Positions 25,831 through 54,195 of a DNA stretch of 64,000 nucleotides are shown one piece after another (within the stretch, counting starts at the first letter, position 1; the number at the start of each line of letters is the position of its first letter). A program made the translations under genes and the position numbers. The stretch covers positions 62,001 through 126,000 of the forward strand of contig JBPGPT010000005.1 in the NCBI GenBank assembly GCA_051047955.1, written 5' to 3'. This DNA is from Cystobasidiomycetes sp. EMM_F5 (taxonomy: Eukaryota). The notes under the pieces were generated by a model. That model searched no databases. It saw only the letters and a list, made by a program, of their open reading frames with translations, and was not told the origin of the DNA.

Positions 25831-26215
25831 TCCTTTGCTGGGACTGCAAGGCGTCCACAATCATCAACAATGGAAGACCTTTGCGCACATTGCTCGTCAT
25901 GTCGCTGCCTAATGTATCGTTGGTCTTTTATGCGCCACTGACCAGTTGCCGATCAGTCTGATTCGGCCTGCCGTCATGCAATTTACGCGGGAAGCACTGA
26001 AATAGCTGCGTTTACAATTGAAAGCTTTGACGGCCTTTCCACTGTCCAAGATAATGTCCATTATGACCATGGAGTGCATGTTCTGAAAGCGTTGTCTGCG
26101 GATTCCGTATCGACGTTTGACGAGCTTGGGCTAGCTCATTCTGGCCTGCCAGCACTTTTTGGTCGAAACCTGCTATGCCGAGCGAGCCATAGTCGCTTTC
26201 AGATAGCGGAGAGCC

Positions 26216-29200
26216 ATGTCTGGCAACGTCAAGCTCATCATCCGGCAGCCGCCTCACCGCGACTTTGTCCACGGATACCCTGGACTGACTGGCCTGCGAG
26301 ACGTCGGGGAAGCAAAACTGCACGGCACCGTCGAAGTCCGGGTGGGAAACAGCGCCGTGCAAGCAAAGTACCTGCACATCGAACTGCGAAAGACGGAAAC
26401 GGTCTCGACGAGCAAGGTGGGTTTGCGTAAAATGCAGTGGCGTCATGATGTAGCACTGAGACTGTCGCGCAGGGTATTCGAAGATACTACGAGGTAAGGC
26501 CGAGACTGGAAAGACTCCTGAGGACTGTGCATATAATTAAACCCCCATCACCAGCTTATTGGAACCCAGGCCGAGATACTATGGCAACCAAAGAACCCTG
26601 ACGCCGAAGGATTTGGAGGCCTGGACGATGTATGTTGTAGTGGCTCTGTACTCTCTCCATGTTTTGAAATTCGCTGACTCAGATGGGACTCGCCAATATC
26701 GCAAATCACCGAACACACAGAGCAATCATGCCTTTTCTATACCGGTTCCAGCTGGCCTACCGCCATCCATCGTCGCAGACCGTTCCAAGAACACCGGAAT
26801 TGTCTATCACCTCTGCGCAACTCTTCTTGCAAAACCAAAGAGCAAAATCTCGATATTCAGCGGACCTCCTGCCAAATTGCCGGTTGCAATTACGCAAAGT
26901 GCAGAGATCCTGATTGAGAAGCATGAGCTCAATTCGACCTGGCCAGTCTACTCCTGGCAGGCGGAAGAAGAGGCTCTCATACACGAAAGAGCAAATGTGG
27001 AAGTAAGGCTCAGAAGGGACAGCGTAATGTATGGAAGTGGAGATCCAGTACAATTCGTGCTCGACTTCCATAACAAGCGTGCCACAGCGACGAAGGTGAG
27101 TTTTTACATATCTCCAAGTATGGACGACAATCGCTGAGATGTCGGGACGTCACCGCCACTTGTTTACAGATCAACAAGGTCGAATTAACGTTGCGCGAGA
27201 TAGTCACAGCCCGCGAGGTCATCAATCCGAGTTCTGGCCCAGTCGCGAGTTCCACCGCCGGCTCCCCAGACAGCGAGGCTAGGCGGACTCTTCAGCAGGT
27301 CACCGAGGTATTTGCTATCAAAGTACCGGTTTCAAAAACACTGGCAGCCGGGACCGCATGTTCGCATATTGTTCGAGGATCTCTACCCGCAACGCATCAC
27401 CGCTTTACTGTTCAAAATGCTAAACACCTTGAAATCCGGTACGTCTTGCGTGTCCGGGCGTCTGTCGAGACTACAAAGGAGAAGAAGCAGCCGCTCTCCA
27501 GACGTTTCTCAGCATACACATCGGGTGTTAACGGTAGCGCGTCTAGTAACGTGGTCATCAACGGCAATGGCAAAGCGGATGGCAGTCATCGGAAGGAGCT
27601 GAAATTAGTTGAAGAGCAGATCAAGGAGCTGATCATGGACGATATTCCGGTGCTAATCTCGCCCTGGTCATCCAAGTTGGGTGAGTGGTATCGCAGCAAA
27701 CTCCAAGAAGCACCTCCACATCTTCTGCGACCCGCCAATGCGCCTACTTCTCCGATGCAGCGTCTCCTATCTCCCTCGACCAAAGGCGCAGATTTGCCTT
27801 CCGTACATATTCCTGCAAAGAGGGTCGCCCAGTCGCCTGTCGATGTTGCGTCTCCCACATTTGCTGGGTCAAGACCAAACTTTACACCCAACCCAGCCGC
27901 CAGTCGGGAGTCAGACTTCACACCCAAACCAGCGGCCAGCCGAGAGCATAGGCCTGCCGCTGCGAGTGCAATGACTCCTGTCGAGGAGCAATCGGAAGAG
28001 CCCTCAATCGACGAGCAAAGCAGCGATGCAAATCGAGAGCGCGTCTTTTCTGAAAGCCTTGCTGCTGGACGTCGCTTATCTAGCTTTCCAGCTAGGGTGG
28101 ACGGTCAAGATATCGAAGCACGCTACCGACCACTTTCCATTCAATCTCCACCCTTGGGCGCTTCCGATATGCAGAATGGTTTCGATCGCAATGCTGTAAT
28201 GCAAAGGCAGGGCGAGCAGCAACTCCGCCTAACTAGATCTCACGATGAACAACAAGCTGGGGCGCGGCCAGTGTCTTCGCGCATGTCCATGTCGCAGTCC
28301 ATGGAATCACCAGTGCGCGATCCTCCGAATCGTCTGCAGATGGACGGCGCCTACCCTGTGTTTCCGAAGCCTTCTCCAGTGGTTCAGCAACATCAAAATG
28401 CTGTCATTCCTCCTCGCCCCACTCGTGCTGCGCCTCCTCCTCCTCCCCCCGCAGAAAGCGACGGGGTTGACTCTGGCGGTGCTGCATTTGGAGGGGAATC
28501 AGAGGCTGATATTGGCAGTACAAGCGATACTGGAAATTCGAGGCAGCGTGAGCCAGCCGTGAGCAAAGTGCCCATCCATGTCAGCAAGCGGAAAAGCGAT
28601 GATGCGATGCAGCCTCTTATGCCGAGTAGCGTCAGCAATACCAACAGCGCTGGCATTCCGCCGCCTCGCATCTCTGCACCACGCCCCAAAGTCACGAATA
28701 TGTTTTCGTTGATGAGAAGCGGAACCCTGTCCACCATAACCGGTTCTCCGCCAGAATCTCCGGAAGATATCATGACGAGATCGCCATCCTTATCGTTCGA
28801 CACTGCAGCGAAGCAATGGCCGACTGCTGAACAGGAGAAGCAACGTTTGGTAGATAATTACAACAGACAGATTGCCTCGCAGCAGGAAGATCAAATAGCA
28901 CATCGGCATATTGACGCTATTCCGGAAGAGCCTGAACGACCGAGCTTGTTGCATGCGAATGACCGAAATCATTCATCTGCTTTACAGAGGACTACCAGCA
29001 ACCCGATCAGGAGCGAGAGCGGCTACGAGCAGGGTTATGGAATGAACGGCGATGATACCACGGGAGAAACACCACACCAACAATCAATCGCAATGTCGGC
29101 GGATGTGCCTTACCTAGATTCGGGTAAGCAGGCAGCCTGCGCAGTGAGGGGAAAAGTTCGCTGATGTTCGCAAAACACAATAAAGCCCGTACCATGAGAC

Positions 29201-29907
29201 ACGCGGCTCCGAGCGGCTTAATGAGCCCAGCATCCGCTGAGAAGTCTCTCTTTCAGATTGCCGCAACCTATCCGGGAGTGGATCAGCAGAAGTTGCTCTA
29301 TCTACAAGCGTTAGCTGAGCGCGAAGCCTATCAGCGCAAATTGGCCGGCGCAAGCCCAAAGCCGCTGTTGGCTCTGGAGGAGAAGCGTCGACTGCAGAGC
29401 AGCGTCGGATCTGACGTGGGCGGCAGTGCCAATTCAAACAGTCAAGGCGGCTTCAGTGCTTATAGCGCCAATTCAGCGTCCCAACAGGGCTCATACTATC
29501 GCGCTGCTGATGTAGCTTCATCCATCTACCTTACACCCTCTGGCGAGTACAATGTACGGCAGCGGCACGGCTACATTGAGTCACCACAATCGTCATCGAC
29601 ACATCTCCCGTCCTCCACCTCCGATCACTCCCAATCCTCGCTCGGTTCTTGGCTTCGCGATCCTAGCATAGCTCGTGGAAAACAACGCAATATCTCGGTA
29701 TACGAGAGTGATGATGGTCGACATTCCAGTCGTCGAAGTCTGGCAGAGTCCAAGGATGGACCGCCATTACCCCCGCGGCTTCCCCCTAAGCCTAAAGAGC
29801 TGCTCCTCGATATGTACTCGCACCTCGACTCTCCGACCGAGATGCGTGCTGCAGACTACGAACAGCATTTCGCACGACGCTCGGTGGCTGCTTCTACGGC
29901 GTACTAG
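26216..29907 (+). CDS. Arrestin-fold-like N-terminal domain protein with a long Pro/Ser-rich disordered C-terminus
   Basis: N-terminal beta-rich GYPG...LHGTVEVRVG...AKYLHIELRKTE, FSIPVPAGLPPSI, GIVYHLCATL and LEIRYVLRVRASV resemble arrestin/Ig-like sandwiches. Long ORFs 27191-29164 and 29164-29907 are joined by an intron. Family assignment is by resemblance only. Confidence 0.65.
27881..27946 (+). repeat. Imperfect 36-bp coding tandem duplication (FTPNPAASRESD / FTPKPAASRE)
   Basis: tttacacccaacccagccgccagtcgggagtcagac is followed by ttcacacccaaaccagcggccagccgagag. Confidence 0.8.
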
Positions 29908-30508: not shown

Positions 30509-31667
30509 TCAGTAGTAGCCGACAGTGTCAAGATCTCCATGAGGGTGCCGTTGAGTTTGTATTCGGATAATCTCGTCAAATTCGTCGTCTAAGCTATTTG
30601 CGGCATCAATCTGTCATGATCGAAAGCAGGGAGCTCATCAGCATATACACTCCGTCTCCATTACAAGTTATCACTTACAGCCGTACAGAGATCCAGCATA
30701 GCTCTCCCGACGATAAGAGCTTCTTCGTGATGGTCCTTGATCTCGATATTAATAGTGTGAAAGGGCCTATTCATTTCCCCTCCTTTTGCCAGCAAATCGT
30801 CACAGACTGCGTCAAAGCATCTCTCTTCGCACTTAATAACAACATCCGCAATGCCTCTGCTCTCCTGCCATCGTTCAGGCGCAGTCTTGATGTTGCGGTT
30901 TCGGTCAATCATGGCGAGGATGCCGTTGGCAGTATACAGCCTCGCGTCTTTTGCCTCGAGATCCCGATACATGTCATCGTAGGGCGTCCCGAAAGCGTAA
31001 ACATTGGATTTGTCAGTCGCATTGCCTGGTAGCCGGACAGCAGAGCCAGTACCTGCACTCGTTACGTTGAATTTCGCGCGACTGCAGGTTCGACAAGAAA
31101 AGCAAATGGTAAGTAGGTTGTCCACCGATGACTGTAGACCTGCATGTGAGAGAAGCTTGACCACCTACGATAATACCTTATGCCCCTCCATAGACCGATT
31201 CTACAAAAATGCAAAAAAGCACAGCAACTTAGACGAGATCTTCGAAAAGCAGACTTTTTTGGCACAGAGTGGCCAATGTGACTGACATTATTACTCGCGC
31301 ATAGAACACAGAGATTCTTCCGCACTTTGTATAGATTGATTTTTTGCGATTGTTGTGCGAGTGATGGTTGCGCTACACCGTTTGTCGGAGGCGGGAATGT
31401 GGATGGGCCGGCTGCGCCATTCACCTGCGGCTGCTGCTGTTGTTGGACAGGAGGTGTTCCGTATGAAGTGTAGGACTGCTGATTTGGTTGGAAAGAATGG
31501 ATTGCTGGGGTGGTCCTTGGGGCAGGACAAGGTTGCGGATGCTGCGGCTGAGGCTGCTGAAATTGGAAGGGTTGCGGGACCTGCTGCTGCTGGAGAATTA
31601 TCGAGGGTCGTGTAGAAGTCTGTTACTGCTGTTTTGCGTTTGCAAACCTAGCTCTTCGCGGGTCCAT
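30509..31667 (-). pseudogene. SSU72: Degenerate copy of SSU72 (RNA Pol II CTD phosphatase)
   Basis: Same 4-exon structure as 56905-58066, but codon 15 is TAA (31625-31623) instead of CAA. It also has a +1/-1 indel pair in exon 1 and substitutions at conserved sites (DKPN>DKSN, VITCEE>VIKCEE, PVHIIN>PFHTIN, KDNHEE>KDHHEE, HEILHT>HGDLDT). Confidence 0.88.
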
Positions 31668-31823
31668 GTTCTCAGAACCTGGACAGGACGATCCGTATCA
31701 CTCATTTAGAGCCAAGTAGACCAAAGCGTGTCGAGCGGTTACAGAATATCCAGGGATATATTATGCATGGTTCGAACGGCTTGTCCTCGATGCGCCTCGC
31801 GGCCCTCAGACGGATCCAATAGT
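30509..31823. repeat. Left arm of a ~1.3 kb direct repeat (SSU72 gene plus about 155 bp upstream)
   Basis: Aligns by eye to 56905-58226 in the same orientation. Homology starts at the stop codon and ends at ccaatagt (31823 / 58226). Confidence 0.93.
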
Positions 31824-32075: not shown

Positions 32076-35000
32076 TTACGTGTCCGATGCGAGTTGGAAT
32101 TCGCAGTCTGTCCATCGCCTCAAGACAGATGCGTATATTTTGCCCAGGGACAGGCGGGTGCGCGTAGCATGCACTTCCATGAATGACGACATTGATAGAA
32201 CCACCATGACACGTGTACGAAGCGAAACCAACGGCGAATCGAGTATTCTAGTTGGTCCACCTGTCATAAAGCGCAAATATCTTATCAGTATGTTGCGAGT
32301 TGTGAAAGAAAGTGGATTGCCTGCCGTAGAGGATCCATCTACAAGCTGGATCGTCTTGTGGTTCTGCTGACCCCCCAATGCCAAGTCTGCCCAGTCGTTC
32401 CCAATCTACCGAGCCCGTAAGATCGTATGTCGGCTCTGTAAGATCGCTCTGCTTGCTCCAAGGAAGAAGAATAGAATAGATACAGATTGTGAGCGCTGCC
32501 TGGAAAGGCCCCAGAAACATCGGCAGTGTCCACGGCCCGCTCGCTTGAAGTAGAGATAAATCTTTTGCGTATCGTACTACTTGAGCTGCATGCAAAACCG
32601 TTCTGCGGGCTTCTATAGTGCCCGTCCAGTTCAAAAGAAGGTGTCGAAATGCCTCAGCCGCGCTCTCCTCCCCGTTCTGCCCTGCAGCATTATATATATG
32701 CGCGATGTTTGTGGAACATGACATGCAGAGCATATTCCACAAGAAGAACTCTGAAGTAGTATCGGCCAAACAGAGCAACGACTTGGCGGAAAAGTATTGA
32801 GCTAGATAAGCGAGAGCCGTGCCGATTCTTCTGGCGGGAGTCAGCCTCCTGTGCCAATGCGCAGTTATAGGAAAGCATGGCACTGACTGTGGGTCGGGCT
32901 GCCATTCATCATCAAGCATTCCCAGCTTTCGACATCGAATGTGCAATTGCAGTAGTGTCATGGCTGACTTAAGCTGGAGTGGTCTATGGAGCTGCCCGAC
33001 GGATTTCCCTTTCAGCAAATCGGACAACCAGGCTGACACTCGGACTTCTGTCGTGTCGGTAGTCGTCATAAGTTGTGCCCAGGCCTGTGCAGTTGTTGCC
33101 AGCCAGAGCGAGTCACTGCAAGGAAAAGCTGTTGCTATCTGGATGAGCGAATGTTCAGGAACACGTATATCGCCCGACAGCATGCTGAACCAGCAATCCG
33201 CAACTAGCAGACAATGCGCTAAGCTGCAATAGATGTTAGGCAGACACGCGGCCTCAACTTGACCCTAATAGGTACGTACCGCTTCGATGTTTCCTGCTCG
33301 ATAAATTTTCGCCAGCTGGATTCGATGTTACTTTCTGATGTCTGAAGTGAATTTATACCTTGAAACGGCGACACCGAAGCAAACAAGCCAACTTTTCGAG
33401 CGTGTTGTATGGCCATGATGTGCAAGGAATACGCGTGCCTCAAAGTAGGAACATCGCCGCCTATTGAAGCAAGATTGCCTCAGCATGATTTCAATTGCGT
33501 GCTTTGCGGACAGGATGAGTCACCGAGAATGCCAGCATATATGACCAGTACGAGGCACTGTAGCACATCGAGCTCCTGATGCATGTCGAAAGCACCCATG
33601 ATCCGCTCTTCCAGCGCCATTTGTACACGCTGCAGGACATTGCTCGAGAACGCTAATGCTTTGGGCGTCCCGATTGACTGGCGCATGGCGAGATCAGTGG
33701 GATGCGCAACATGGCTTACTAGACGTGCTCACGCGAGCGCCGTTGGCACACATTGACAAGAGACAAATGATCGACAGATTTTGGGAATTAAAAGTCGGGA
33801 TGTGGGTAAACCTGCGATGCATGTGGCAGGTAATTCAGCCACGGTTCATGACTGAAAGAGTATATTTCGTACACATGGACTCCGTAATGAGCTGAGAGAT
33901 ACTCCTGGAATAAGGGCCGGTCAATACGTCAAGGTGATGATAGTCCAGGGGCCTACATGCAATGCCGCCCCCAAGAAATCGGAATTGGGTAAATCAGGCA
34001 AATGGCCCACGGCTGGCGGTGGCTATAGGTGATCATAGTTTTAAGCTTCTCAAGCTCATTCGCCAACCGAATATCAGTAAGTGCAGCTTACGTCTCCCGA
34101 TGCTACCGACTTGATACTACTTGCTAGGGAAGGACCGTCTTCTACCAAAGGCCAGAGGTCGCGTACAGCTGAGTAACGTCGGGCCAGGTCAAGAGGCGAG
34201 AAAGGCAGCTGATTACAGACTCCTTCGGATGCGGCAGGACCTGAGCCGGCATTGGTGGTAACAACGTCACCTATACCGTCTGATAAGTTAAACGTGGGCA
34301 CCGAATCGTCGGTTGCGAGTGGCACTACGCCAGGGTCAAGATTCGCATTTTGTAAGACCGGAGTCGACAGCCACGAGCGGAAGGCATCGTCAATATGGTC
34401 GGTCAGTTCATACTGTACTTGTGGGTTGAAAAGGTCGATAACAGAATCATGCCACCTGAATTGGTGTAATTGGTGTAACTCCTGGGGATTGACACCGCTG
34501 CAGAAAGCTGTGTCATCAAACGGTCGAATGACCGAGCTTGCGGAAAAAGGATCCTGTCTGCTGACTGGATAAGCGTCTTGTGCTATAGCTTGCGACGCAA
34601 GCCGTTCTGGAACTTCCGCAATGTCTGCAAATAGATTCGCAATGTCTAGCTCGTCGCCGGGCTGTCTTTGCTGCTGTACGAGTTGAGACATGTCACGTTT
34701 ATTGCGTACACGTACAAGTCTGCTCACCGATCGCATGTCTAGCCGCATTTCGCCGTCATGGAATGCGTAGCGAGGACCAAGATTTGACCGCTCGGCGGCC
34801 GTAAGAGCGATGGGAGTGTCCGGGGCTGCCTGTTCTGCTTGACCAGCTCCTGCAGTTGTTCCTGCAACTAGATTGCTCAGATGCGGGCTGATATCCGTAC
34901 TCAATTGATCCGCATCTGGTACAAAAGTAGTTGAGACAACCAGGGGCTGTGTAGACAAAGAGTCAGGCCATCTGCTTGACCTCTGTTCAGGAGTATAAGA

Positions 35001-35584
35001 GCAATACGTGCCTCGCAGCGAGGAACGGACTGCTGGACGTGTGCCCCTATTGACGATGTTGGCAGGCCGTCGCGCTGCGGGGAAAAGGAAGATGCTTGGC
35101 CGAACCACGATTCCTGTGAGGACGAGAACAAGCCGCGAGAGATATCGCCCATTCGAAGCGTCTCAAGGTCTTCGCCTTGACCGCTGTCAGCGTTTTCTCC
35201 GTCTGGTTCCTGGGCATCATCAGGTTTGTCGGCTAACGTTATTGCGCTCATCTCCGCGCCCGGTAGAGCGTGTCTCCGCTCGTGTCTGGATAGCACATCC
35301 TTGCGAGCAAACGTTTTCCTAGTCGTGAAAGGCCGGATGGTCTTGGTCAGCGTCCTGCAAGCAGAAGCTGGCACGATGGGCGCTCTTGACTAACAAGCAG
35401 TAACGACAGGCGAATGGGCGACTACCGGAATGGACCCTCGCATGTCGAGCGAGATGCCCAGACTTTGAAAAAGTCTTGCCGCATCTTTGCTCGCTCAGAA
35501 ATCAGCCCATCTGTAGAGGTCCGGAAGCCCATGCCATGTGGCATGACCCCACTAAGCTCACTCATTGCAGTTGACTTGGCCCAT
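32076..35584 (-). CDS. Transcription factor with two N-terminal C2H2 zinc fingers plus a fungal-specific TF middle domain
   Basis: Spliced fingers [49 protein letters not shown]. Downstream [48 protein letters not shown] and [17 protein letters not shown] are typical of this fungal TF class. 3' end uncertain (32248 or about 32076). Confidence 0.88.
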
Positions 35585-35930
35585 GTGGCTTTCGGCTTCG
35601 AGACTGGCAGCTCGGAGTGCATATCAGGGCGTTGACTGCCGTATACGTTGGTGCGAGACTGGCTTGTTGGCCTAAGCTGAGCCGACTTTACCATTTGAGG
35701 GGGAACCTCTCACGCCCCATGCTCACAATGCAACAATGCGTACGGCGGCTGAAAGTGTGTAACTTCGCGCAGGAGCCGGTCTCATTCGTTTCCTCGCGTA
35801 GCCGCAACGGCAGAGATGAGTCTAATAAGCATACATTCCGTACACACGCGACAAGCCAATGCGTAAAGGAAGCACTGTGATCATGCGAGTATCTGGATCT
35901 AGATGGCCGCATCTTATCGTTATGGCGCCG

Positions 35931-37532
35931 TTAGATACCATTGCCGCCGGTCACCTGCAAAAATACCGTTCATCAGTCTTTGGACGGACTTTTGTATTGG
36001 CGAAGCAATTCAGCCCTGACCTCAAGCGTATGACCAGTCACATAGCTCGCCATCGGCGAAATCAAGAAGAGCACTGCCGCAGCCGCTTCCTCCGCTTTCG
36101 CTCCACGTCCCAACGGTATCTGCAATTCCGAGGGCGACAACATCAGAACGCCAATATGATATCCAGGCTGGTGAAACTCACGCCTGGTACAGGCTTTGAG
36201 CCGTCCCCGGATCCGCCTCCGGGAATACCGAGTGCAATCTTTTGACCATCCACAATGATTGATTCGCCTTTCTCCTTTGGCTGAGTCAGGCGTGTCTCGA
36301 TTAGACCACTGACGCCGCTGCGCACTTAGCTTTCTGACGTCGGCTGCGTACGGAAGTGTAACGCACAAGGCTACAGTATTACAACGGACGTTGAAGGAAC
36401 CTGTTCATTTAATGTGATCAGCGTGTGGTGAGCCCGTTTTCGTCGTGGATGGAGGATGGAGAACACACCCCATTCTTTTGCGACAGTCTTGGTCAAGCCT
36501 GTGATACCCTGATGTTTGAGAAAATACTCAGCAGCTTTCGAAAGATTAAAGTGATGAAGCTCACAGCCTTTGCGGTAGCGTCTATTTAGTTACAGATGTT
36601 AAGTGTAAGGAGACTGCGCATTCCTTACATCATATCAACACTGGGAGTCGACTTACAATTGGCTTGGCCAACGTTGCCATGCAAGCCTGCAATAGAAGAC
36701 ACATTGACGATTGATCGATTGGTATGTACGACCTTTGGATCTTTTGACCGTAGAATCCCAGCCGCGGCTTTGATAATGCCTACATATCATCATCATGATC
36801 ATCCATGTCTCGTCAATGGATATTTGAGTGCACGGATACCTACGAAACGGTGCGACATTGTGGACCCTCAAGATCAAGTCAAAGGTTTCATCCGACATTG
36901 TGTGCAGCATCTGTTCGGGATTGCCAAGGCGGACCGGTTGCCATCAGTCATGCGGTCATATATCGGTGCGTGTCACTCATACCTTATCTGAGAACGTCCG
37001 TGTGACATGATTCAGTAACGTAAATGATACGGACAGCGCAAGACCATTCGAGCTGCGAAGACTCACCGAAGGTGAAACCAGCATTATTAACAATGTGTGA
37101 CACTTTACCGTATTTGCTACAGAGCGATGGTTAATGCGATGCGTCAATAGGTTGCCTCACAACCCACGACATGGTCTTGTCAATCAGGGCTTTAGGGAAG
37201 TCGTCCGCCGTGATGTCTCCGGAAACTGCGTACGCGTCCCCGCCTGACCTCTGAATCTCTTGCACCACAGCCTGAGCTTTCGCTGTGATATTGGAGCGGT
37301 ATCAGAGAGTAGCGCATCTCCACCCTGACGGGGCAAGTATCGTAGACTTGCCATCGTCGATATCGCTGACTACGACTTTAGCGCCTTCCTTCGCAAACAG
37401 GACCGCGCATGCTTTACCAATGCCCTGAGCAGCTCCCGTGATGATGACAACATCACCCGCTATAAGACCGCTAGGATAGCTGTTTGTTAGATGGTTGCTA
37501 ATCGCCGAGAGTCTGTTGGCAGTAGTCGACAT
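35931..37532 (-). CDS. Classical short-chain dehydrogenase/reductase (FabG/3-hydroxyacyl-CoA dehydrogenase-like) with N-terminal PTS2
   Basis: VVIITGAAQGIG, VVVSDIDD, IVNNAGFTFDKMLH, NVSSIAGLHGNVGQANYATAKA (YxxxK), IPLGRGA and SPMASYVTGHTLE|VTGGNGI*. RLSAISNHL at residues 7-15 fits the PTS2 consensus. Confidence 0.92.
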
Positions 37533-37804: not shown

Positions 37805-39089
37805 ATGACGGATTCGGGGGCGGACCTGATGCAGCGTATCGCGGAGTTTGGTGCCGACAATGCGATAGTCAGCACGCACCACACGTCTTTACTTGAGGAG
37901 TTGAGGACTTACCTGCTTCATAATTGCCAGGACCAGCAAGCTGCCTTTACCTTACCATTAGTCGTTGAGCAGCAAAAGCAGAGGCTATCGCATTTGACGC
38001 AACCGCAGGAATACGAGTATGGAACACACGAGCGACACAAGCTGGACGTCTATCCTGCCCAAAGCCATGACCGGCACTCTGAGCGGCCTCCACTGCTTCT
38101 CTTCTTGCCAGGCGGTGGCTTTGCAGTCGGAGATAAGCGCGCTGCTCCCGGCGGTCAGCAAGCCCTCACGTATGTTGTGCCAGCACTTAGTGACATTCCT
38201 CCATCTGGACGATGCTCTCTCTCGACACGTCGAATCGACATCCAGTCTATGCTGGACTGGCAAACTATTTCGCTGCCCATGGTATTCCCTGTTTCAGCGA
38301 AACACTCGCGATAATGCCCTGACATATGGTTAACTTTGCATGACTGCTGCAGGGTTCTGCGTTGTCGTTATGAATTACCGACTGTTACGGCATGGTGCAA
38401 TTTACCCCGACGGGGCTAGCGACCTGGCACAAGCTTTGGCGTGGATTGGACAAGGCAATCTAGGGAACCGAGCAGATTGCAACAGTGTCTACCTTTTCGG
38501 GGAGAGTGCCGGGTAAGCAGGTATAGCATTCACTCATGGGTCAGCGGAGTCTTCCTGATCATACTGCAATTGTGCCGAACTTTGTCGGGCAGAGGTATGC
38601 ACATCGCGACACTACTCTATGGCAAATGCCAAGATTTCCAGTCTATTCCATCGATACCTGGAATATCGCTGCGGGGAGTAGTGTATTTGAGCGCCCCATT
38701 CGGAGGTGCGTCTCCACTGCCTCCGAACTGGCAAACATATTATGGCGGAGAAGCGGCGTTTCAAGATCATTCCCCGATTGCGCTACGACGGGCCAGCTCG
38801 GACAGAACCCCCACACTCATCGTCAGCGCAGACTTTGACATAAGCGCAGTTCGAAGCTGGGTAGGATGCCAGCATGCATTGGCCTCAATCATTGGCATAC
38901 TGACGCTACGGCATTCAGGTCGAGCCGTTTCGTAACGCTGTGCAGGCTGCGGGCGCTCCGGTACAAACTATTGAAGCGACCGGGCATAATCATGTCAGCC
39001 CGGCTGCTAGCGTGGGCCTGAACGAAAAAGCAGACCGATGGTGTCAAACCTTGATACAGTGGGCATATTCTCGTGTCATTCTGCAGTAA
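37805..39089 (+). CDS. Alpha/beta-hydrolase (HSL-family esterase / kynurenine formamidase-like)
   Basis: YGTHERHKLDVYP, oxyanion motif LFLPGGGF.VGDK, VVVMNYRL, nucleophile elbow LFGESAG, SADFD and GHNHVSP. Stop at 39089. Confidence 0.88.
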
Positions 39090-39383
39090 TATCTGGCTGT
39101 CAGGTATTTGGGGTCGAAGAGGAGTGCATCAATAGCTTTGCAATTCTAACGCAGCTATTCGCTCCGGGTTTCACTTGTAATCTGAATATGCATGCGTGTT
39201 ATTATGATATAAGAGCAGATTGAATGCTGAAGTCTGCTCACATCTCTTGGCCAGTATGTTTCCTCCTCACTCCAACCTGAGCTATGTCCAATTCCTGCAA
39301 TTGGGAATTACATCAGTGGGACTCAGGCTATACATTCAGAATTATTATCCTCGAGCTCGGCGCGCAGCCCCGGAGCCCGCCGA

Positions 39384-39391
39384 GTGGGGTC
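39384..39391 (+). promoter_or_regulatory. GTGGGGTC motif upstream of the PRISE-like gene (candidate cluster TF site)
   Basis: One of five exact GTGGGGTC/GACCCCAC copies seen in non-coding DNA of the island. A GCGGGG follows at 39399. Confidence 0.45.
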
Positions 39392-39572
39392 AGGTCATGC
39401 GGGGCGGTGGCTTCGCTTGGTTTGTAGCGCCAATTGGTATGCGTGCCGCAGTACATATCCTCTGCTTCATCTGGAACGCTGCCGAGATATCAGACACCCT
39501 GGGGCTGGCTTCAGTTCTGCTATCCGACGTTCCAAAGGCTCCGTATACTCACGACCTCATCAAAGATCTAGA

Positions 39573-41494
39573 ATGCAGAACGAGATATTACTTGTCTATG
39601 GCGGCAATGGGATCACTGGAATGGCATTCATAGAGGCCGTCCTGAAGGAATCAGACACTGCCGGTAAGCGATAGATCCTGCAACTATAAGGCACTACAAT
39701 GGCAGTCTGAATCTTCCAAATCGACGCTTCCGTGCTCCACGGTACTAGTACAAAAGGTGGTCTGCATTTCGCGAACCACTCCGTTCGTCGATTTCCGAGA
39801 TTCTCGATATTCTCATTTGAAACTGGATCTTAACTCCGGGGCCGACAACATTGCCAGCACTCTGGAAACTGCTGGTCTCGGCAACGCTACTCAAGCACAC
39901 TTTTTCGCTTACATTTCCAAAGACTCGGAGGAAGAGCTGATTGGGGCCAATGTCCCCCTACTTCAGAAGGCAAGAGGCTTACTAGCGCCTTAATATTGAG
40001 CTGGTGTACTTTCCCCTGGGCTAATCAAGACGTCTTCTTCACAAACAGGCTGTCGAAGGCACAACGAAGGCGTGCCGTAATCTCAAAGTGTTTCACTTGC
40101 AGACAGGTTACAGTAAGTCTGGTGCAATATCGCCTACAATTCCTCGACTGACGCAGCCCACCTACAGAATATTATGGGTATGAGGCTTTTGAATCATCGC
40201 TGCAGACAAGTCAGAGCTAAGACAATCTCACAAGTGTGACCAAAGGAGGGGATCAAGTCGCGAAACAGCCATTCTCGGAAGATGCTCCGAGAACGCGGAC
40301 GAACCAGTAAGTCCAGGTGCTCCACAGATCGGCAATGAAACCTCTTAGTTCTGGGATCAGCTTCTACTATCCGCAAGAAGATCTTCTGAAAACTGCGTCT
40401 GCCAAGTATGGGTGGAGTTGGCTTGTGACGCGCCCCTGCATGGTAATCGGAGTAGCAAAAAGTGAGATGTAACCGCAATGCAGTATACACGAATGCTTAC
40501 AATTATTGGGCTTGCGGCGTGCCATGATAGGTAGCATCATGTCGGTACGTGTGCCTCGACACCCGGATTGAAAGCAATCGAACTGATTACGGACCCTTAC
40601 CTGCTGCCTAGATGTAGGCCTCCAGCCGAGTCTCCGAGTTTCGGCAAATAAGCTAATCACCCATTGGTGCGATCTGATAGTGCGGTGACGATCGCTCTGT
40701 ATGCCGAGCTCTGTCGCGCAACTGGCTCACCCTTCCGTTTCCCGGGTGCCGACTTCAGCTATTCCGTGCTTGGTCAAAACGTATGTCTTTCCATACGCTC
40801 TCACATGCATGACGGCAATCGAGGAACACGGGCTTAGATTGTCAAACCGTCGGCAGTCCACAGCCTGGCACAATGCGGCATTTCAGGTTTTCCTGTTACA
40901 GCGCCCGAATGCCTGGAACGAGGCATATAACATCTGTGACAACGAGAGCGGCGATCCATACACTGAGCTCTGGCCTAAGTTGGCTGGGTAAGTGAAGCAG
41001 TTTTGGCGAGTCTGCCATCCGCAATCCCAACACTAACGGTCGTGTCCACAGCTATTTTGGTGTTAAGGTGGAAGAGCCTCCAAAACTGCCGAGTACGGTG
41101 AAGATAGGAGAAGAAAATCACATAGCCTTCAGAACTGGCGAGTGGGCGCGTACACATGATCTGAAAAAGATTGCTCGTGAAGCAGGCTTGGACGAGAATG
41201 TCTACGACCTTGCAAGCTGGGACTTCTTGGATTGGACAACTACAATGCGAGTCTACAACATGTTGGCGGTGACAGCCATATTGATCATGCTTTCCAGGAC
41301 TTGGCCGGTCGTTGGCTCACTTGAGAAGGCCCGACAGATTGGGTGGGGCAAAGACAAGGATATTGGTACATACGAAGATGGCTATGTTCCCACGTTCGAC
41401 AGACTCAAGCAGTACAAGGTATTTCTACGAGCTACAACGCTTGTACACGATGATACTAAGTATACGTGGCCAGATCATTCCGTCTTCCCCGTAA
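39573..41494 (+). CDS. PRISE-like (progesterone 5-beta-reductase/iridoid synthase-like; SirQ-type) atypical SDR, putative enone reductase
   Basis: LLVYGGNGITG, VVCISR, LDL, HFFAY, LQTGYKYYG, PFSEDAPR, FYYPQED, WLVTRP, IALYAELC...FPG, NEAYNI and SLEKARQIGW are the diagnostic PRISE-family motif series. Highly spliced. Confidence 0.88.
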
Positions 41495-42098
41495 ATGGTC
41501 GAAGTGGCACCGCTGTCGTGCCAAATTTCGGTAATCGTTTCCGCGAGCCGCGAATTTTATCGGGAGACCATAGTAACCGAGAAAGTACGGTTTCGGTGTA
41601 GTATAGCCGTTATCCTTTCGCCTCACATGTTATGACGGTGGAGGTGGAGCGTTGCTTCCATAATTCGTGAAACATCTTCGTGCAGAACACAACTACTGCA
41701 GCATGCAACAACTGCGCGACGAGTTGACAGACATTGCAGCCGACTATCGCGTACGCGTATACGCCGAACGTCTTGCTTTGGACAGGAGGCCAGCCGCAGA
41801 GGTCAGATGCTGGAGTTGCTGGACCCGATGCTGAAGGCCTAGCACACATACTGAAACACCGGATCTTAAAGCTGTGCGGCAAGGTTTGTCACGGTTCTGT
41901 GTACATTGTTACAGTGGTTACACCGCAATTCCTTCACTTGGCATTAAGGTACGGTATTCTATAGCTACCGTGTCTCGTTGGAGGATGTCCCTGCACAATA
42001 CAAGCTTAAGCTTATTTTTATGAGCCTATACAGAGCAATACCTGCAATGGGTCACAAAGGACAACACGGAAGCTACAGACGACAGCTGTTGCTGTCTG

Positions 42099-44657
42099 CT
42101 AATCATAGAAGGGCTCAACGTTAAGTCCGTGTAATGCTTCTTGAATCTGTATAGCCGCCACGTGCGAATAGTATCGCGAAATGGCAACATCTCCAGCCAT
42201 AATGATAAATCTCGGATCTGCCGTCGATATTTGGTGAGTCATGAAGCGGCCGGTAAGCTGAGGGACACTCACGACCAGTGGGTCTCCATGTGCCCCGGAC
42301 TTCGCCTTCAGCATTCAGACCCCATACATCCTCCATTGCGTCTGTAATGTCTTCCCCTACGATCTCGGCAGCTTGTAACCGCAAATTTTTGTCCCGGAAG
42401 CTATTGATAGATTGGGCAAGATAAGGCTAGTCAGCCTAGGTCTGTGAGGAGTCTTGTGCAGTTGGCCGTACTTACCCTGTAGCGAAGAGTATAAGATCGG
42501 AATCCAGAGCAGAGCCGTCCACGAAGGCAAGACCTGTCTCCGTGAAGCTGTCGATTGCGACTCCAGACTTAACTTTGATCTAGGTGTATGAGTAAGCAGT
42601 TGTCAGCCAGCCTCGCCATCGAATCGACTTTATCGGGACAGTACTGACGTGGCCATCTGCGATGAGCTCTGAGCAACCTATGTCGACGTAGTGGCCGCCT
42701 TGAAGAACGATGTATACTTGGTGAGCTTTTGTATATAGAATGAATGGTATCAACTCACCTCCTCGACCCAGAGTGTGCGCAAACAAATCGCCGTATCGAA
42801 GCAATTTGAAGCCGGCCGCCTCTAGCTTGTCGAAGCGTTGACTGGCGTAAAAAAACTCAGCTTCCGCTCGGAGTACGCAGGTCGGCGAAAGTCTACGCAC
42901 GAGTACTTCCTGATGAGATCATGTTGTATCCGCATCACCATAGCCCGTGTCACAGCAAGCGGCGTTCCGAAGGCGAAGCGATCAGACACCTCAGATGACA
43001 TGCGATCATTGTAGCCAGCTGCATAAATTGCATATGTATAGATCTCAGTAGACTAGCCCTACTGTAAACAACCAAATGCGCCCACCTCCCAGAATAGCTG
43101 CAAGGTACTCTCGCGGGATGACAAACGTCTTTTCGCGCTGTATTAGCGTGACTTCAGCACACCCGCTGAGATATAGGTCTTGCGCCATATCATGGCCTGT
43201 GCCGCATCTTGTCAGACGATGCGCAAACGCAAGGAAGTAGCAACTCTACCTGAGTTGGCAGTGCCGATTACTATGGCTTTCTTGCCTCGCCAGGTTTTGC
43301 CATTCATGTAAGCAGATGAATGCACTATGTCTCCTTTGTAGAGCTCCTGTCCAGGTTTGAAGGTAAATGAGCTGTCTGTAGAAGCAACGGAAGCAGGAAC
43401 GTACGCGATTGGGAAGTAGCGGCATACTAGGCCTTTGGCTGCCCGCTCCCGCCGCGAATACAAGGAAAGAGGCTGTCACCTCCTGCGAGCTCTCTGACTC
43501 GTGGGAGATAGTCGGCTTGAGCTGTATGAGCCACGAGTGTGCTGAAGTATCGTACTTTGCGGCGATGACCTCTGTAGACGTCCGAACAGGTACTCCGGCT
43601 GCAGCAGCTAAGGCGCGGTACTGGTCCGCGACCCTGGCAGTAGGAACCCACTCCGGAACATCTTTTGAATATGGTAGGTAGGCAGGATGTCCTGTGCGCA
43701 CAGCGATGAGCTCAGAGGGATTCGCGCACGTAGCCAAGATTTTGCCTTACCGTAGGCTTTCGGGGTGTGGAGACAGAGCAAATCGTATCGGAGTCTCCAG
43801 CTATCGCCGGCAGCAGCATTCTTGTCTATCACCAGGACTTTCATCCCCATTCCGCACAAACGCGCACCCAGCTGAGTCCCATTCTGTCCTGTATGGATCG
43901 TATGTGAGATGCGGTACACAGTTTGAGGATACTTTACATACCCGCGCCAATGATAACGACATCGTATGCAGAAAGATGCCCGTTGCTTCGTCTCTCGCCT
44001 GTATTATCCTCTATATTTCCATTGGGATTGCCATTTGCGTTGTGTATAAAGCTAGGCACGGCCTCCTTTTCCTGCTTCGTTGCGACAGGGTTTACATATG
44101 GGTGGCCCTCTAGAGACTCGACAGTGGAGGAGATGATCCAGAACTTCCACTGGTTATTCGAAGAGCCGGAATCGGGGATAAGGCGAAATGCTCCAGAACA
44201 TAGGGCAGCGGGTCGGGAAGTCTTGAAGTTGTAGAGGCCTTGGATCCAAGCAAGGCCTGGTATTGGAGGCTTGACCTTTTCGGCAGTGCCGTTCTGGAAC
44301 ACCAAGTCGTGCACGCCAGCTCGCGGCACTAGCGTTTCAAGGGCTGATTTGACCTTGGCGCGCCCGGTAAACGTCCTGAGTGTGCCGCTCAGAGCGATCT
44401 GCAGGGTGGAGAGCCTTTAGCATACGCATTGATGTTATCGTTCAAGCGCGTGAACTGACCTGGTCGCGAAGGAAAGCATCGCTACGGAAAAGTTGTTCCA
44501 GTGCGGACCATTCCTGTCGTTGGATTGTATCGTCTAGACGCTTGATCATAGACTGACAGACTGCCTCCGCATCGACATTGTCCGGTATGGAGATGTCACT
44601 CGGCAGAGTATAGTCCAAATCGCCGGGGTGGATTGGGGGGATCTGAAGGCGAGCCAT
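42099..44657 (-). CDS. Flavin-containing monooxygenase with N-terminal extension (class B, type-II FMO/YUCCA-like)
   Basis: Extended N-domain (LFRSDAFLRDQ...SGTLRTF), DVVIIGAG|QNG, GDSWRLRYDLLCLHTP, FMO fingerprint variant YKGDIVHSSAY, KKAIVIGTANSG|HD, GGHYVDIGCSELIADG, LFATG and DVWGLNAEGEVRGTWRPTG. Confidence 0.9.
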
Positions 44658-45207
44658 TTTATCGGATTATCGAGGTCGACAGAGTGCTCCAGCGCAGCGA
44701 GGGCAGTGGAGGAGGCAGCGTGTGCTCGTGTGCTTGCCTACGGATCCACGTAGCCGCCGTAGCATCGTCCTGGAAATCAGGCCCCGTCAAGCTGGACCCA
44801 CTCCCGGACCCACACGGCCACACGATGTTTTGCTGACAGCTCAGTCTGCACGGCATCATAGTATTTGTATACATGCAGCTGCAGTACCGCATGGTAGCTT
44901 AGTATCATATCCGTCCACATAAAGGGAGTAAAGGCCGCCTCACACTAAAGGCAGTTTTGGATAGTTGTGGCAGCTGGCGTAGGCAACGAGCGCATTTCGT
45001 TTCATGTTATTACCATTGCCTTTCAAGCTGGCGTGCGATGCTGAGTCAACTGTTGCGCAAACACCCAACAGGAAAATCTCCGTTACCAAAACAAAACCTG
45101 GACCTAGTAATGTCCCACTAGCTGGATTCATCGACATGGAAAACGCAATATTCAACAAAAAACCACCGTCGATACTTTGTCTCCTCAAGTACGCTACCAA
45201 GTCCACT

Positions 45208-47806
45208 TTACTTGGCGGATGCCAAGCTCTCGAGCTGGAGCTCGTCATGCTTGCCTTCGTCTGCTGGACTTGCCGCTCGAAGGGCGCTTGCGTAGTCAGT
45301 GCTGGACATGTTCGTGGTGCTGTCTTTAAAGTTGGCGGTGACACGCGGGACATGATACGGGATAGGACCACCGATAGCACGAAGGCGATGACCAAAGATC
45401 TGCAGAACGGGGACCACAAGGAAGCAGCATCCGTTGATGATGGTCAGCATCGAGACTGCGAGTCATCTCAAGCTGCCTTAGCGTCATGTATGCGAGCGTT
45501 GATATTCACGCTTTACTGACATGCATAGATGGGCCCTTTACCCAGTGTCAAGTCGAGCACTACATGCCGTGCGAGAGCAAGTCAGCATTTTGCATGCCAC
45601 AGATGAAACACACGCACTGTAATAGCTGAGCACAAAACCACCGAGCACGCGGAAGAACTGTAACGCCAGAAACTCGTCGGCGGAGAGTTACGTCTCTCGG
45701 AACAACGGCTCACGTTGATCCAGCCCGCTGATGTAGAGTATGATGTCAGCTTCCGATGCTCGGACACACCGCATAGATATCCTGCGTACAAATCTCGCCG
45801 CCAGCGTCTGGGTAGCAATCAAGAACATATTGGTAGAACCCGGTCATGCTCTGCCTCCTGCATATGTCAGTCTCGTTATCAAGGCCGGACCGGATCAAAC
45901 GAACCATCATGATCCCAGCCAAGTAAGAAGCCTGCACACACACGTACCAGCCTCGCCAGGTCAGAAGATGGACAGCTTCTAATCAATCGCGAGATCGCTT
46001 ACCCAACCGACTGCAACCCAAATGTAATGCCACCGACGCTCGAGTGCGTAGCCGAAGATCACAAGACCAACCAAGAGAGGTCCACAGCCGATATAGTTGA
46101 CCCACAGCCGGACTTCGGGCTTCCACTGGCCGCCAGAACGTTTGATATACGTCCGTTGTATGTAACCGTTAATGATGTGCCCGGCAACCTCGCCGGTAAC
46201 TACGCCAATCATCTGTATTCGCTCTGGTTGTCTCAGTGCTTGCATGTTGCGTATTTCATAGTGATGACTGCCTTACGGGAGCGATGTAGAAGGCTGCCAG
46301 ATTCTTGTACTCGAAGCCATAACTTACATTCATGAGAACACTGATTGTTGTGGCAACTGTATCGAAAACGAAATCAGCACAAGACTTTGACAAAGGGCGT
46401 TCGCGTACTGCCAATGACGCCCAAGAAAATCAAAGAAATCACAACCCCGACCATGGCAACAACCGGCCTGGTCAGAACGCTGGTCTCGGCGGAAGCAGTA
46501 TAAGTACACTGCGTATTTTCGATCATTGTAGCGAACTCACACAAACGACCGGATCCATGCTTCTTTTTCGGTATACGATGTTTTCGGGCGTGAACGGCCT
46601 AGACCAGAGGCGCGACTGATCCACGCTGCAGTTGAGGGTTGCTCAGACGGCGCTATGGCCCTATTATACCTGTGAAATAAAGCGGTTTCACATTTAGCTG
46701 CTTCCGGCGACGCACGATATGTGTGTGTCGTTTGTGTCGTTACTTACCAAGTCTCATCGCAGAAGAGAAGCAGGAGAATTAGGGACACGCCGCTGAGAAC
46801 TGCAAATTGGCCAAATGCCCAGTGCCACAGTGCAATGTTGGCGGGATTGACGGATAAGACGCCGTTGGCGATCAAGGGACCGAGATAAGGCGATAAAATC
46901 CAGAACGACGTCCACTGGATAGTGTTCTCTTAGCAAAATCTTTTAGGTTTGTGCAGATGGGTCCACTGACTAGATTGACCATGGCAACCTGCTCGTGAAA
47001 AAAGTACATGTCTATATAGTAATACAGCTGACATCAGCGTGTTTCTCGAGCTGAGCGAAGCTGCAGTCACCTTTGATGATCATGAGGCCAGTTGCCTGGC
47101 ACGTTGCGGAAAAGAAACCATTCAGGATGCGGGCCGCCAAAAAAGTATTGAAGTCTTCAGCCGCCGCGCAGAGTATTGCAAATATGATGGATAGTGTCGT
47201 CATCCAAATGACCACGGGCAACCTGCCGTACACCTGGGACCACGAGACTGCAAAGACGCCGCCGATACCTGGGACTTTGTCAGTGTCGGACCGCAGGCTG
47301 GCCTGGGCAGGCTGACAAACCTAGCATGGCAACGTTTCCAGACTAAGAAGTGGTTATATCAGGCTTCATAACACACTGCAGCATTTGCGTAGACCTACTT
47401 GTGAAGACAAAATGGTGTTAAGGGAAGCCTGCCAGTAGGTAGCTTGCGGGATGAGGGTAGCCGCACCCGTCGCACTGCCATAATCCGGCAAAACTGCCGC
47501 GACTGCAGTAGATAGCAAAACTCCCAGTTTCTTGCGGGATGACCAATTCAGTGGATCTTTGCAGTCTGTACAGGGATCAGCGAGGAGCATGGTGTACATT
47601 ATCTCGCGCCTTCTGGAGCCTCACCATCGGCAGGCTGGTAACGCGGTTGAAATCAGTACGGGCCGCGAGCTATGAGCAGGTAAACCAACCTGAGGAACCA
47701 ACACGATGTGACCGCGCTTCTTGAGAGCTGCGCCTGCCGCACCAAGTTGGACATCTGACACGATGTGTTCCGCTCCCTCGAGATCGATTGTTGGAGTAGC
47801 CATCAT
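45208..47806 (-). CDS. Major facilitator superfamily transporter (DHA1-like)
   Basis: HIVLVPQ, DPLNWSSRKK, YGRLPVVIW, FLAARILNGFF, WKPEVRLW, YVLDCYP, GWIN|FFRVLGGF and LQIFGHRLR, with many TM segments. Confidence 0.9.
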
Positions 47807-51815: not shown

Positions 51816-53840
51816 TCACAACTTGAAACCTTGGGTGGCAGCCTGACGTATCTCCTGCCGTACACCAAAATCCAACAAAATCTCTTCGGAGCCCTGCAGG
51901 AATACGTGTATTGTTGTTGAATTAGCTAGGTCGACTCGTCCTTCTGCGTGTGAACGCACTCCTGGTATAGCTACTGATTTGGCATCCCGTCGAATGCGTT
52001 CTACCCGTTCACCTTGTCCGCCTGTTGATGTCAATGCATTAGCAAAAGTCGCGCAGCCGCCAATGTATGATTGAGACCGCCTGACCTCGTGTGATGCCAA
52101 TTCCCCCTAGTATCTGGACAGCTTCTCTAGCCACAAGTTCTAGCGTCATACTGCAATGAGCTTTCATTAAGGCGGTAGTTCCACCAAGCCGCCTGTTCGC
52201 TTCTTCATGACTGAGCTTGTGTATGGCGTATACGATAGACTGCGTTGTCGAACACGTCATCTTATTGTTAGCGGGGCTCGGGTAGTCTATTGAAGCAGTC
52301 CCCACCTCGAGCCAAGTCTGCTGGGACTCGATGCAGCGGGCCATATGTGCGAGCTGATGCAATGATCATTAAGAGTCGACGACGCAGAAGGTTCGCGTTG
52401 TTCAAGCAGCTCACCTTGTTGCGAATGACCTCGCTTTCAATGAGAGCCTTTCCAAAAACTCTCCGCTTATGTGCGTAGTTAATCGTGTCCTCGAGGCAGC
52501 ATCTCGCAAGCCGTTGCGCGGAAATACCGATAAGCAACCGTTCGTGATTGAACTGCGAGCTGGCCTAAGACAAGGAAGCGCAGATTCGGATCAGACTTAC
52601 ATTAGTAAGAATCATCTTGAATCCTTCGCCCTCCCTTCCGATAAGATTTTCTTTTGGCACTTCGACATCCTGTGGTCGTAGCCGAGGTCAGCTGGATTCT
52701 CACCGGGCAGTGTGGGCATTTCTACGTACCTCAAAATTGAGCAGCGTAGTGCCCGCAGCCCACTGCCCAGACATCAGCATCTTGTTTCTCGTTACTCCGG
52801 GGCCATTTTCGATGAGAAGAAACGAAATACCAGCCGGATCTCCAGGCTTTCCGGAAGTGCGTACTGCAGTAGCTGTACAAGCATGCGTGAGCCTCGCATC
52901 GGCCCTGTATTTTCGCTTCGTGCTCACTGAAGTAATCCGAGTACATGCCACAAGTGATCCACCTGGAGTCAATCAGCCTTTGTTGCGGTGACGTCTCGTA
53001 TTGATTGTTTGCTTACTTTTTAGTCCCGCTGCAGGAATGAAGGTCAAGCGTCGGAGGGCTGCGCAGATCTGAGCGGCTCGACTTACTTTACAATATAGCT
53101 GATAGGACACAGTCTCTCAGCCTTGAATTGATAGCAGAAGTGATGCGGCAGAAACCCTTACTGCGTGCCAGCAGAGTTAAGTTTGGCAGATGTGGAAAGA
53201 TTTTTGACATCACTGCCCGCCTGAGAGGAGAGACACCGTAAGAGTGTAAGTCTGATTTGGGATGGCCGCAGCTCGCCTGTGGTTCAGTGATCGCCAGGCA
53301 TAGACGCTTGCGACCAGAGAAAATGTCCGGCAGTACTCTATCCTGTAGTTCTTGCGAGCCGTAGTTGTATATAGGAGGACAGCCTATCTGGAGACTACCG
53401 ACTGTAGCTTGGCCGACACCGACTGATGCACATCTGTGCAATTCATCAATCATGATCATATCATGACTGTCAGAGCCAAGCAGGCTTCAGCACCGAGTTT
53501 GTTTGCGGCCGTTTCTTATGGTGTCGTTGACCTACAATCCATCCCAATCTTGCGCCTTGACGCCTCCAAAAACAGTACCGTCTGCTTGTGCCCAGCGCAG
53601 CGGGACGCGGGGCCCGAATGCGAATGCAGCCAAGAGACCAGCTTTTGCAAAGGCCTGGTAAACGTCCGGATTGATTGCACGGTTTTCTTCCCATTCATAT
53701 GCTACATCGAAAGTGTGCTCGTCAAAGAAGGCCCGCGCTGCTCCTCTCAGGCTTTGATGACTCTCGGTATAGTAGGGAGATGGAATGGCCTGCGCCATTA
53801 CCGACGTATCAGGGGTCTGGGATGATGATGGGTGCATCAA
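51816..53840 (-). CDS. Acyl-CoA dehydrogenase (fungal type), C-terminus GFKL
   Basis: SPYYTESH, RLCLAITEPQ|AGSDV, YIVNGTKKWITCG, TAVRTSGKPG, GISFLLIE, FNHER, RRVFGKALIESEVIRNK, AREAVQILGGIGITRG and AIPG|GSEEILLDFGVRQ. Confidence 0.93.
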
Positions 53841-54195
53841 GACACTGCAAGGTCAACTCACTCGATACCATTGCGGCTCCGCAAAGGGGGTCGTAGACCC
53901 AAACGATACTGCTGATGATTCAGTACTTGTGGCCATAGGTGTGGATGCCATGTTCTGCAGCTCCGTCAAGACGTGATGAGTCGTGGTCGATGAGCATTGA
54001 CGATCTTAGCAGTCATTCAGCTATATCACTTCGGGCTTGTTGGTGCGGACCCACCTATACCCACCTTGCCACCAGGCATGGTGGAGAGATGGCTAGTACA
54101 CCGGTGCGTTGCGCGATCTACGTCTGACCGTCGTTCCAGGAGCGATACAGAGCCTGCCGACACATATACTGCCTCCTCTACGTAGAAACGTCGCA

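Follow-up and report, generated by a model that had tools for sequence, protein, structure and literature searches.

Two copies of SSU72 (hereafter A and B) in a 64,000-nucleotide stretch of a contig of Cystobasidiomycetes sp. EMM_F5 (JBPGPT010000005.1, positions 62,001 to 126,000; the window) form a real and statistically solid two-block mosaic, in which a young block, running from position -156 upstream of the gene to about codon 258, passes inside exon 3 into an old block whose synonymous divergence is close to its plateau. A and B are direct repeats, 26.4 kb apart, around a 25-kb single-copy stretch which we read as a catabolic cluster. We give about an even chance to the explanation that a cluster-bearing segment from a long-separated lineage was joined here by a homologous crossover in exon 3, so that B would be a chimera and A a displaced spare.

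The contig to which the window belongs is 730,574 bp long and comes from an 18.3-Mb genome rich in introns, and the lone self-repeat of the window (30506-31823 vs. 56902-58226; 85.3% identity) covers the two genes. Both are located on the minus strand with four exons each (Table 1), and the genome gave exactly two SSU72 matches by DNA, by protein and by the Pfam model. The model PF04722 matched B with an E-value of 3e-61 and A with 6e-56, the curated cut-off of 25.3 bits being passed by exon 3 of both (B, 207 bits; A, 189 bits), and B matched the PDB Ssu72 chains with E-values of 3e-57 to 3e-40. The CX5R motif of the Ssu72 phosphatase is present in an intact frame in B; A has retained it, although codon 15 is a stop. 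The order along the minus strand is CAS1 (divergent)/RPB12, B, the cluster, A, and an arrestin-like gene (convergent), for which Arrestin_C was present in 7 of the 9 homologues scanned; the arrestin side of A is a series of housekeeping genes. RPB12, small, intron-rich and placed between CAS1 and B, is easily overlooked in a listing of open reading frames (ORFs). SSU72 is single-copy in every species of a fungal survey (PMC5307856) and is essential in S. cerevisiae and not in S. pombe (PMC8091971). Adjacent ORFs at 3497-4735 and 5849-6799 (plus strand) for Ser/Thr-rich single-pass membrane proteins have similar C-terminal ends and are probably an old tandem pair, with no match at the DNA level; the start of the contig carries a direct repeat with 93% identity (contig positions 1-143 and 173-317).

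Table 1. Features of the SSU72 pair, the interval between the copies and the adjoining genes (positions in the window)
Feature	Position	Strand	Basis and remarks
Arrestin-like gene	25942..29907	+	Start approximate; converges on the 3' end of A
SSU72 copy A (pseudogene)	30509..31667	-	Exons 31667-31287, 31200-31169, 31081-30679, 30610-30509; GT-AG introns
Probable second compensating indel pair in A, exon 4	30527..30538	-	Alternative: five substitutions in four codons
Mosaic breakpoint interval in A	30718..30813	-	Codons 228-259; best ~30721
122-bp identical core in A	30881..31002	-	Codons 165-204
Compensating one-base indel pair, exon 1 of A	31494..31529	-	12 codons out of frame, low-complexity N-terminus
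Premature TAA, codon 15 of A	31623..31625	-	Gene model of A
Upstream homology of A, 156 bp	31668..31823	-	Stops abruptly at 31823, the junction with the cluster side
Transcription factor, Cmr1-like/Fungal_trans	32079..35700	-	Atlas 0.97, Fungal_trans in 21% of members; ends approximate
Short-chain dehydrogenase (SDR)	35976..37532	-	PF00106 and PF13561; 3' end approximate
Probable alpha/beta hydrolase	37805..39070	+	Motifs by eye; no Pfam match; ends approximate
PRISE-like NAD(P)-dependent reductase (lead only)	39200..41600	+	Atlas 0.92, third-ranked; no Pfam match; ends approximate
Flavin monooxygenase (FMO)	42100..44666	-	PF00743 (E 4e-5), PF01266 (E 4e-4); ends approximate
MFS transporter	45211..47800	-	PF07690 and PF00083; ends approximate
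Cytochrome P450	49146..51420	-	PF00067 (E 5e-7); ends approximate
Acyl-CoA dehydrogenase (ACAD), C-terminus -FKL	51816..53830	-	PF00441 and PF02771; start approximate
Small gene, cupin-like by eye only	54190..54940	+	ORFs; no Pfam match; ends approximate
MaoC/hydratase-2 peroxisomal dehydratase	55148..56446	-	Intact 7-exon model, 308 aa, C-terminus -AKM
SSU72 copy B (intact, 306 aa)	56905..58066	-	Exons 58066-57683, 57598-57567, 57480-57078, 57006-56905
Mosaic breakpoint interval in B	57117..57212	-	Change-point test
122-bp identical core in B	57280..57401	-	Exact match to the core of A
Upstream homology of B	58067..58226	-	Alignment to A
RPB12 (RPABC4), housekeeping	58649..59024	-	PF03604 (E 7e-8) and translation; directly upstream of B

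The change-point test was performed on 257 codons with the same residue in A and B, the frameshifted stretches and the stop being left out. A single synonymous change-point gave an LR of 24.9, which was as high in 0 of 2,000 permutations, with differences at 24 of 219 codons on its left and 18 of 38 on its right; the break was best placed after codon 258 (support, codons 228-259). NG86 dS rose from 0.18 (0.12-0.27) over codons 1-258 to 1.72 (95% bootstrap, 0.74 to infinity) over codons 259-305, where 20 synonymous and 4 non-synonymous differences were counted (pS 0.67); pN was 0.04 in both blocks. Among the non-coding parts, the upstream 156 bp (72% identity, z 17), intron 1 (76%) and intron 2 (85%) aligned between the copies (0/500 shuffles each), the DNA beyond -156 and the 3' UTR gave no alignment (486/500 and 432/500 shuffles, respectively), and intron 3, though flanked by two conserved exons, was 50% identical and barely over chance (10/500 shuffles). 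The homology edge opens with a 9-bp identical stretch (31815-31823/58218-58226) that includes a CCAAT-box-like word on the opposite strand, and no microhomology longer than 10 bp was found among the intergenic pieces. Reading the upstream alignment as conserved promoter blocks in an old region was rejected as weak (runs, p 0.04; window, p 0.19).

Most of what a sequence-only reading of the pair had claimed agrees with these values. Its count for the first 24 codons of exon 4 (differences: 11 synonymous, 2 non-synonymous) is exact, introns 1 and 2 and the ~155 bp upstream do align, the last intron and the 3' UTR are unalignable as it had said, apart from the slight excess in intron 3, and the pS and pN of codons 259-305 uphold its long purifying selection on both 3' parts. 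Uniform synonymous divergence, by which that reading had proposed to be refuted, was not found. Its partition into exons 1-3 and exon 4 was misplaced, because the old block begins inside exon 3.

The SSU72 pairs used as controls (from 80 metagenome loci; the pairs depend on one another, and the last zone is well covered in few of them) had synonymous divergence that was flat across five zones (pooled 0.68, 0.60, 0.60, 0.56 and 0.61), and their plateau near 0.60 makes the earlier wording of a near-saturated 3' divergence a fair one for 18/38 codons; the same zones of A vs. B gave 5/25, 0/38, 3/33, 10/26 and 11/26. A single plain duplication and later decay, in which the 3' excess would come from local hypermutation of A or from weaker synonymous constraint at the 3' end, agrees with A being in decay, but the excess is almost wholly synonymous (20 vs. 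4), which hypermutation of a dead gene cannot produce, and the control pairs stay at 0.56-0.68 throughout; we give this explanation practically no credence, as the earlier reading had also held. RIP-like hypermutation was likewise rejected, the changes being mixed in kind and the excess synonymous. The codon choice of the 3' part of A was not told apart from that of B (11/21).

The 122-bp identity is exact, as had been claimed, and the run is unusual when compared with the whole coding sequence (p 0.0006); its status as a separate tract was overstated, the evidence being weak once the exon-3 break is allowed. Within the 5' block, the longest run at synonymous sites had p 0.19-0.22, the inner-tract test gave 45 and 65 of 150 permutations, and a second break on the neutral sites with introns and the upstream region included (78 of 404 differing) was not significant (113/1000), so that treating the core as a third block of its own was unsupported on synonymous or neutral sites. 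With all differences counted, the core was marginal (p 0.011-0.013). An empty core was found in 0 of 41 moderately diverged control pairs, and divergence fell from the upstream region (39/155) through intron 1 (15/74) and intron 2 (11/77) to the core (0/18; Spearman p 0.06). A short conversion at the core may have followed later.

The core is long enough to confuse short reads, which would suit an assembly artefact or a wrong phase at this place (for example, a chromosome with B5'-A3' and a circle with A5'-B3'-cluster, or two merged haplotypes). We regard this as very improbable. A has lesions to the left and right of the core, whereas B has none on either side, and only the assembled phase therefore leaves an intact SSU72. 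With repeated 30-mers as its limits, the unique sequence that extends from the contig start up to the core measures 92,713 bp, and a public Logan contig encoding a protein identical to the arrestin exon has exactly this length; this agreement, in which length alone was compared, suggests that another short-read assembly, probably made from the same reads, truly branches at the core. The contig contains no Ns, the single-copy state of the cluster and its flanks argues against a retained second haplotype, and a phase swap would keep the two-block pattern.

The earlier description of the pair was incomplete in two respects, the pseudogene state of A (stop and indels) and the self-contained cluster between the copies, both of which it lacked. 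Nearly all amino-acid changes between the copies fall on A: at 16 of 16 differences in the catalytic domain, A has the rarer and B the commoner residue among 120 homologues, and the lesion at 30527-30538 affects a His present in 118/118 homologues. Thirteen of the 16 are plain substitutions (three lie in the shifted stretch of exon 4), and 8 of these 13 were seen in none of 89-120 homologues, some at positions fixed in 120/120, which is the pattern of unfiltered decay. Codons 111-258 contain 9 non-synonymous and 16 synonymous differences, the neutrality of A since the 5' split had p 0.004-0.044 (kappa 1-6), and the omega of A over that time was 0.3-0.46; A was under purifying selection for much of its past and was not neutral since the 5' split. 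The shortage of non-synonymous changes, yet with 8/13 residues unique to A, suggests a step from function to decay, and A would have been functional for more than half of the time since the 5' split before it died. The low pN of the old block, with the changes falling nearly all on A, indicates that both 3' parts were long under purifying selection. Two compensating indel pairs are expected by chance at ~0.005 (0.04 for one real pair); they favour a period with two sheltered functional copies and are left partly unexplained. Two routes by which A might be rescued were considered and rejected, an intron newly formed over the stop, since acceptors close by put the sequence out of frame, and a downstream start, since the next in-frame ATG falls after the CX5R motif.

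The interval between the copies contains about ten single-copy genes, with a regulator and a transporter of its own, and from its gene content we read it as a putative peroxisomal beta-oxidation-like catabolic cluster, self-contained and the likely payload. The MaoC gene alone was modelled in full, the ends of the other genes being approximate. A C2H2-like motif was read by eye in the ORF at 34904-35389 of the Cmr1-like gene, PRISE was found in 19% of the Atlas members for the PRISE-like gene, and the cupin-like gene may be broken. The readings of peroxisomal signals follow the PTS consensus, and the SDR has an N-terminal PTS2-type nonapeptide at residues 7-15, the same position as in R. toruloides 10558. 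The MaoC model was identical to a Rhodotorula homologue at 177 of 304 aligned positions. A search with it gave 10 homologues at 44-48%, and all 8 with a source name were Microbotryomycetes-type yeasts, which argues against a distant ascomycete donor for this gene and names no donor. Two further full-length MaoC paralogues are on other contigs (C201:1879-3252 and C221:347935-349889), and SDR paralogues also occur elsewhere in the genome; on C221 an SDR match directly precedes that to the hydratase, an arrangement that a FOX2-type multifunctional enzyme would show.

The tetranucleotide profile of the cluster was the most deviant of the 28 blocks on the contig (0/27 others reach it), a shift which may come from low long-exon density alone (1898 codons vs. 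2424-5039 per block); its codon usage was that of the host (G 46 on 41 df, GC3 0.515). No transposase or tyrosine recombinase was recognised when 98 ORF translations of the window, mostly of the interval, were compared with Pfam, a search that can miss short exons. Target-site or terminal repeats at the cluster edges did not exceed chance-level short repeats, and no tRNA that might have served as a target was found in the window.

Capture of the cluster would have proceeded as follows, its foreign origin, polarity, mechanism and order being what we infer from the pattern. The donor segment would have consisted of the 3' end of SSU72 with the adjoining cluster and would have come from a long-separated but related lineage, such as a sister species or an ancient cluster-bearing haplotype. 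It would have been joined to the resident locus by the crossover in exon 3, and its far end would have been joined without homology to a second resident gene copy cut at -156, giving RPB12 - [resident 5' + donor 3' = B] - cluster - [resident gene = A] - arrestin. This could have happened in one event, by one-sided invasion with both SSU72 copies useful for a while afterwards, or in two, if cluster-bearing and cluster-less alleles diverged in separate genomes and merged later; finally A would have become redundant and decayed. Such a course explains the long selection on the 3' parts without two SSU72 genes per genome, since each would have been the sole SSU72 of its own genome. The MaoC gene next to the old block of B is intact. 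The sharp end of the homology at -156 speaks for capture, as do the step of A from function to decay and the self-contained, single-copy nature of the interval with its deviant tetranucleotides. The old block of B adjoins the cluster, which is where the GAL alleles of S. cerevisiae (10.1101/829325) would lead one to expect it if the cluster came as a non-homologous insert. Against capture stand the host-like codon usage of the cluster, the indistinct codon choice of the two 3' parts and the failure to find a relative that would polarise either block. In addition, the two compensating indel pairs fit two sheltered copies in one genome better than sudden redundancy, and a second uneven tandem pair on the same contig (415962-417546 and 418660-420263; 73% overall, 58-96% per 100 bp, with a 44-bp identical run) indicates that conversion-like patterns occur here without a cluster. 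This second pair is possibly another conversion mosaic or a case of strong coding constraint.

The same observations bear on an old duplication within the genome, perhaps at the insertion of the cluster, after which ectopic conversion would have kept the 5' block alike, the 3' part would have escaped early and A would have decayed last; we hold this to be a tentative but credible account, with less than even confidence. Mosaics made by interlocus conversion are well documented (PMC3924837; 10.1101/2025.10.29.685298), the copies are at a suitable 26.4 kb in direct orientation, divergence drifts down towards the core (Spearman p 0.06), counting all differences puts the core at the margin of significance (p about 0.01), and sheltering, host-like codon usage in the cluster and the possible parallel on the contig all suit it. 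However, it needs two working SSU72 genes for long enough to reach dS >1, with no new function and in an otherwise single-copy family, and near-identical direct repeats would have had to escape pop-out throughout. The gradient towards the core is not significant (113/1000), and the non-coding 5' edge is alignable up to a sharp end, whereas intron 3 is nearly erased.

A further reading, which we consider doubtful, is a gain of the cluster that needs no recombinase: a part of SSU72 would carry the cluster and dock by homologous recombination into the orthologue of the recipient, possibly as a 26.4-kb circle, leaving a working chimera and a spare. The 3' decay of the spare would then lock the cluster in, because the only SSU72 left after a pop-out through the similar 5' block would be a damaged one.

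The pairwise data are symmetric and would permit the reverse polarity, with B and the cluster resident and the 3' block of A together with the arrestin-side arm brought in from a diverged lineage by a larger hybrid crossover. The A residue G303, found in 3 of the 4 nearest homologues that cover this position, and the host-like codon usage of the cluster agree with this, but the whole arm would have to be foreign, the blocks to the left of A have no compositional shift, the arrestin side is a series of housekeeping genes, and a duplicated flank is absent from the genome; we therefore judge it improbable. Relatives were sought in a protein collection, where no close SSU72 was found (best, 84%), the nearest named one being from a Cyphobasidiales MAG (84% over exon 3), followed by Microbotryomycetes, so that the source is probably a Pucciniomycotina yeast. 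Among the best 80 of 264 metagenome loci, no close SSU72 locus (best, 75%), no neighbours shared with the SSU72 region and no RPB12 match were found, and one locus had a weak match to the ORF at 8096-8473. SSU72 was not adjacent to CAS1 or MaoC in the distant Sporidiobolales and Microbotryum as judged by locus tags. Since no close relative was found and the codon usage is host-like, divergence in different species, introgression, a donor and a foreign side are put forward here as candidates, although what the earlier reading inferred in general terms is reasonable.

Known systems share parts of this arrangement. Opsins and RHCE-type cases (PMC3924837) and HMA4 (10.1101/2025.10.29.685298) are mosaic paralogues made by interlocus gene conversion, and they resemble A and B in that the copies are direct and close together, include strongly and weakly diverged blocks and share an identical tract. 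Unlike them, the SSU72 pair has a divergent block without adaptive amino-acid change in a normally single-copy family, a ten-gene cluster between the copies, and one dead copy. The GAL loci of S. cerevisiae carry anciently diverged metabolic alleles, under balancing selection in population data, and their edge can cut a housekeeping locus (PGM1 promoter 48% vs. coding region 94%); very high dS beside a metabolic module, dropping with distance, is common to both cases (10.1101/829325). The GAL alleles are in different strains, whereas the SSU72 versions are on one chromosome, in the one genome compared. Aspergillus fumigatus has gain and loss of clusters and idiomorphic cluster alleles, with accessory clusters between conserved flanks as here (PMC5711037); these loci are rich in transposon fragments, whereas the present cluster has a duplicated, chimeric housekeeping gene as its flank and gave no recognisable transposase or recombinase. 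One-sided invasion, or ectopic gene targeting, in plants in the laboratory gives the same outcome, one homologous and one end-joined end leaving a chimeric gene and a spare (PMC9299229). It is known from transformation experiments, whereas the event that we infer here would be a natural one. SXT/R391 at prfC is a bacterial integrative element that restores its target gene, with a site-specific integrase and short att sites; it is similar in that a conserved gene stands on both sides of the insert, as a repaired working copy and as a displaced one, and different in that the SSU72 repeat is 1.3 kb and an integrase and att sites were not found. For the cluster itself, the peroxisomal beta-oxidation-like p-coumarate pathway of Rhodotorula toruloides, which includes the 10558 SDR with its PTS2-type signal, shares the family types of peroxisomal dehydratase, PTS2-bearing SDR and alpha/beta hydrolase (PMC7873862); in contrast to that pathway, no CoA ligase or thiolase was recognised in the cluster, which adds ACAD, P450, FMO, the PRISE-like gene and MFS.

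The best-ranked literature matches, in a search with subscription journals mostly outside it, contained no natural duplicated chimeric housekeeping gene around a fungal cluster and no Cystobasidiomycetes paper, and the search found no literature on an SSU72 duplication of this kind in fungi. Cluster gain in fungi outside the transposon-rich filamentous ascomycetes is poorly known. If the old duplication with conversion is true, the locus would be a clean example of an ordinary process, ectopic conversion with later pseudogenisation. If the cluster was captured, the integration would be recorded, and dated in two steps, by the chimeric housekeeping gene on one side and the dead copy on the other, and other genomes could be searched for clusters flanked by a duplicated single-copy gene that has a synonymous change-point.
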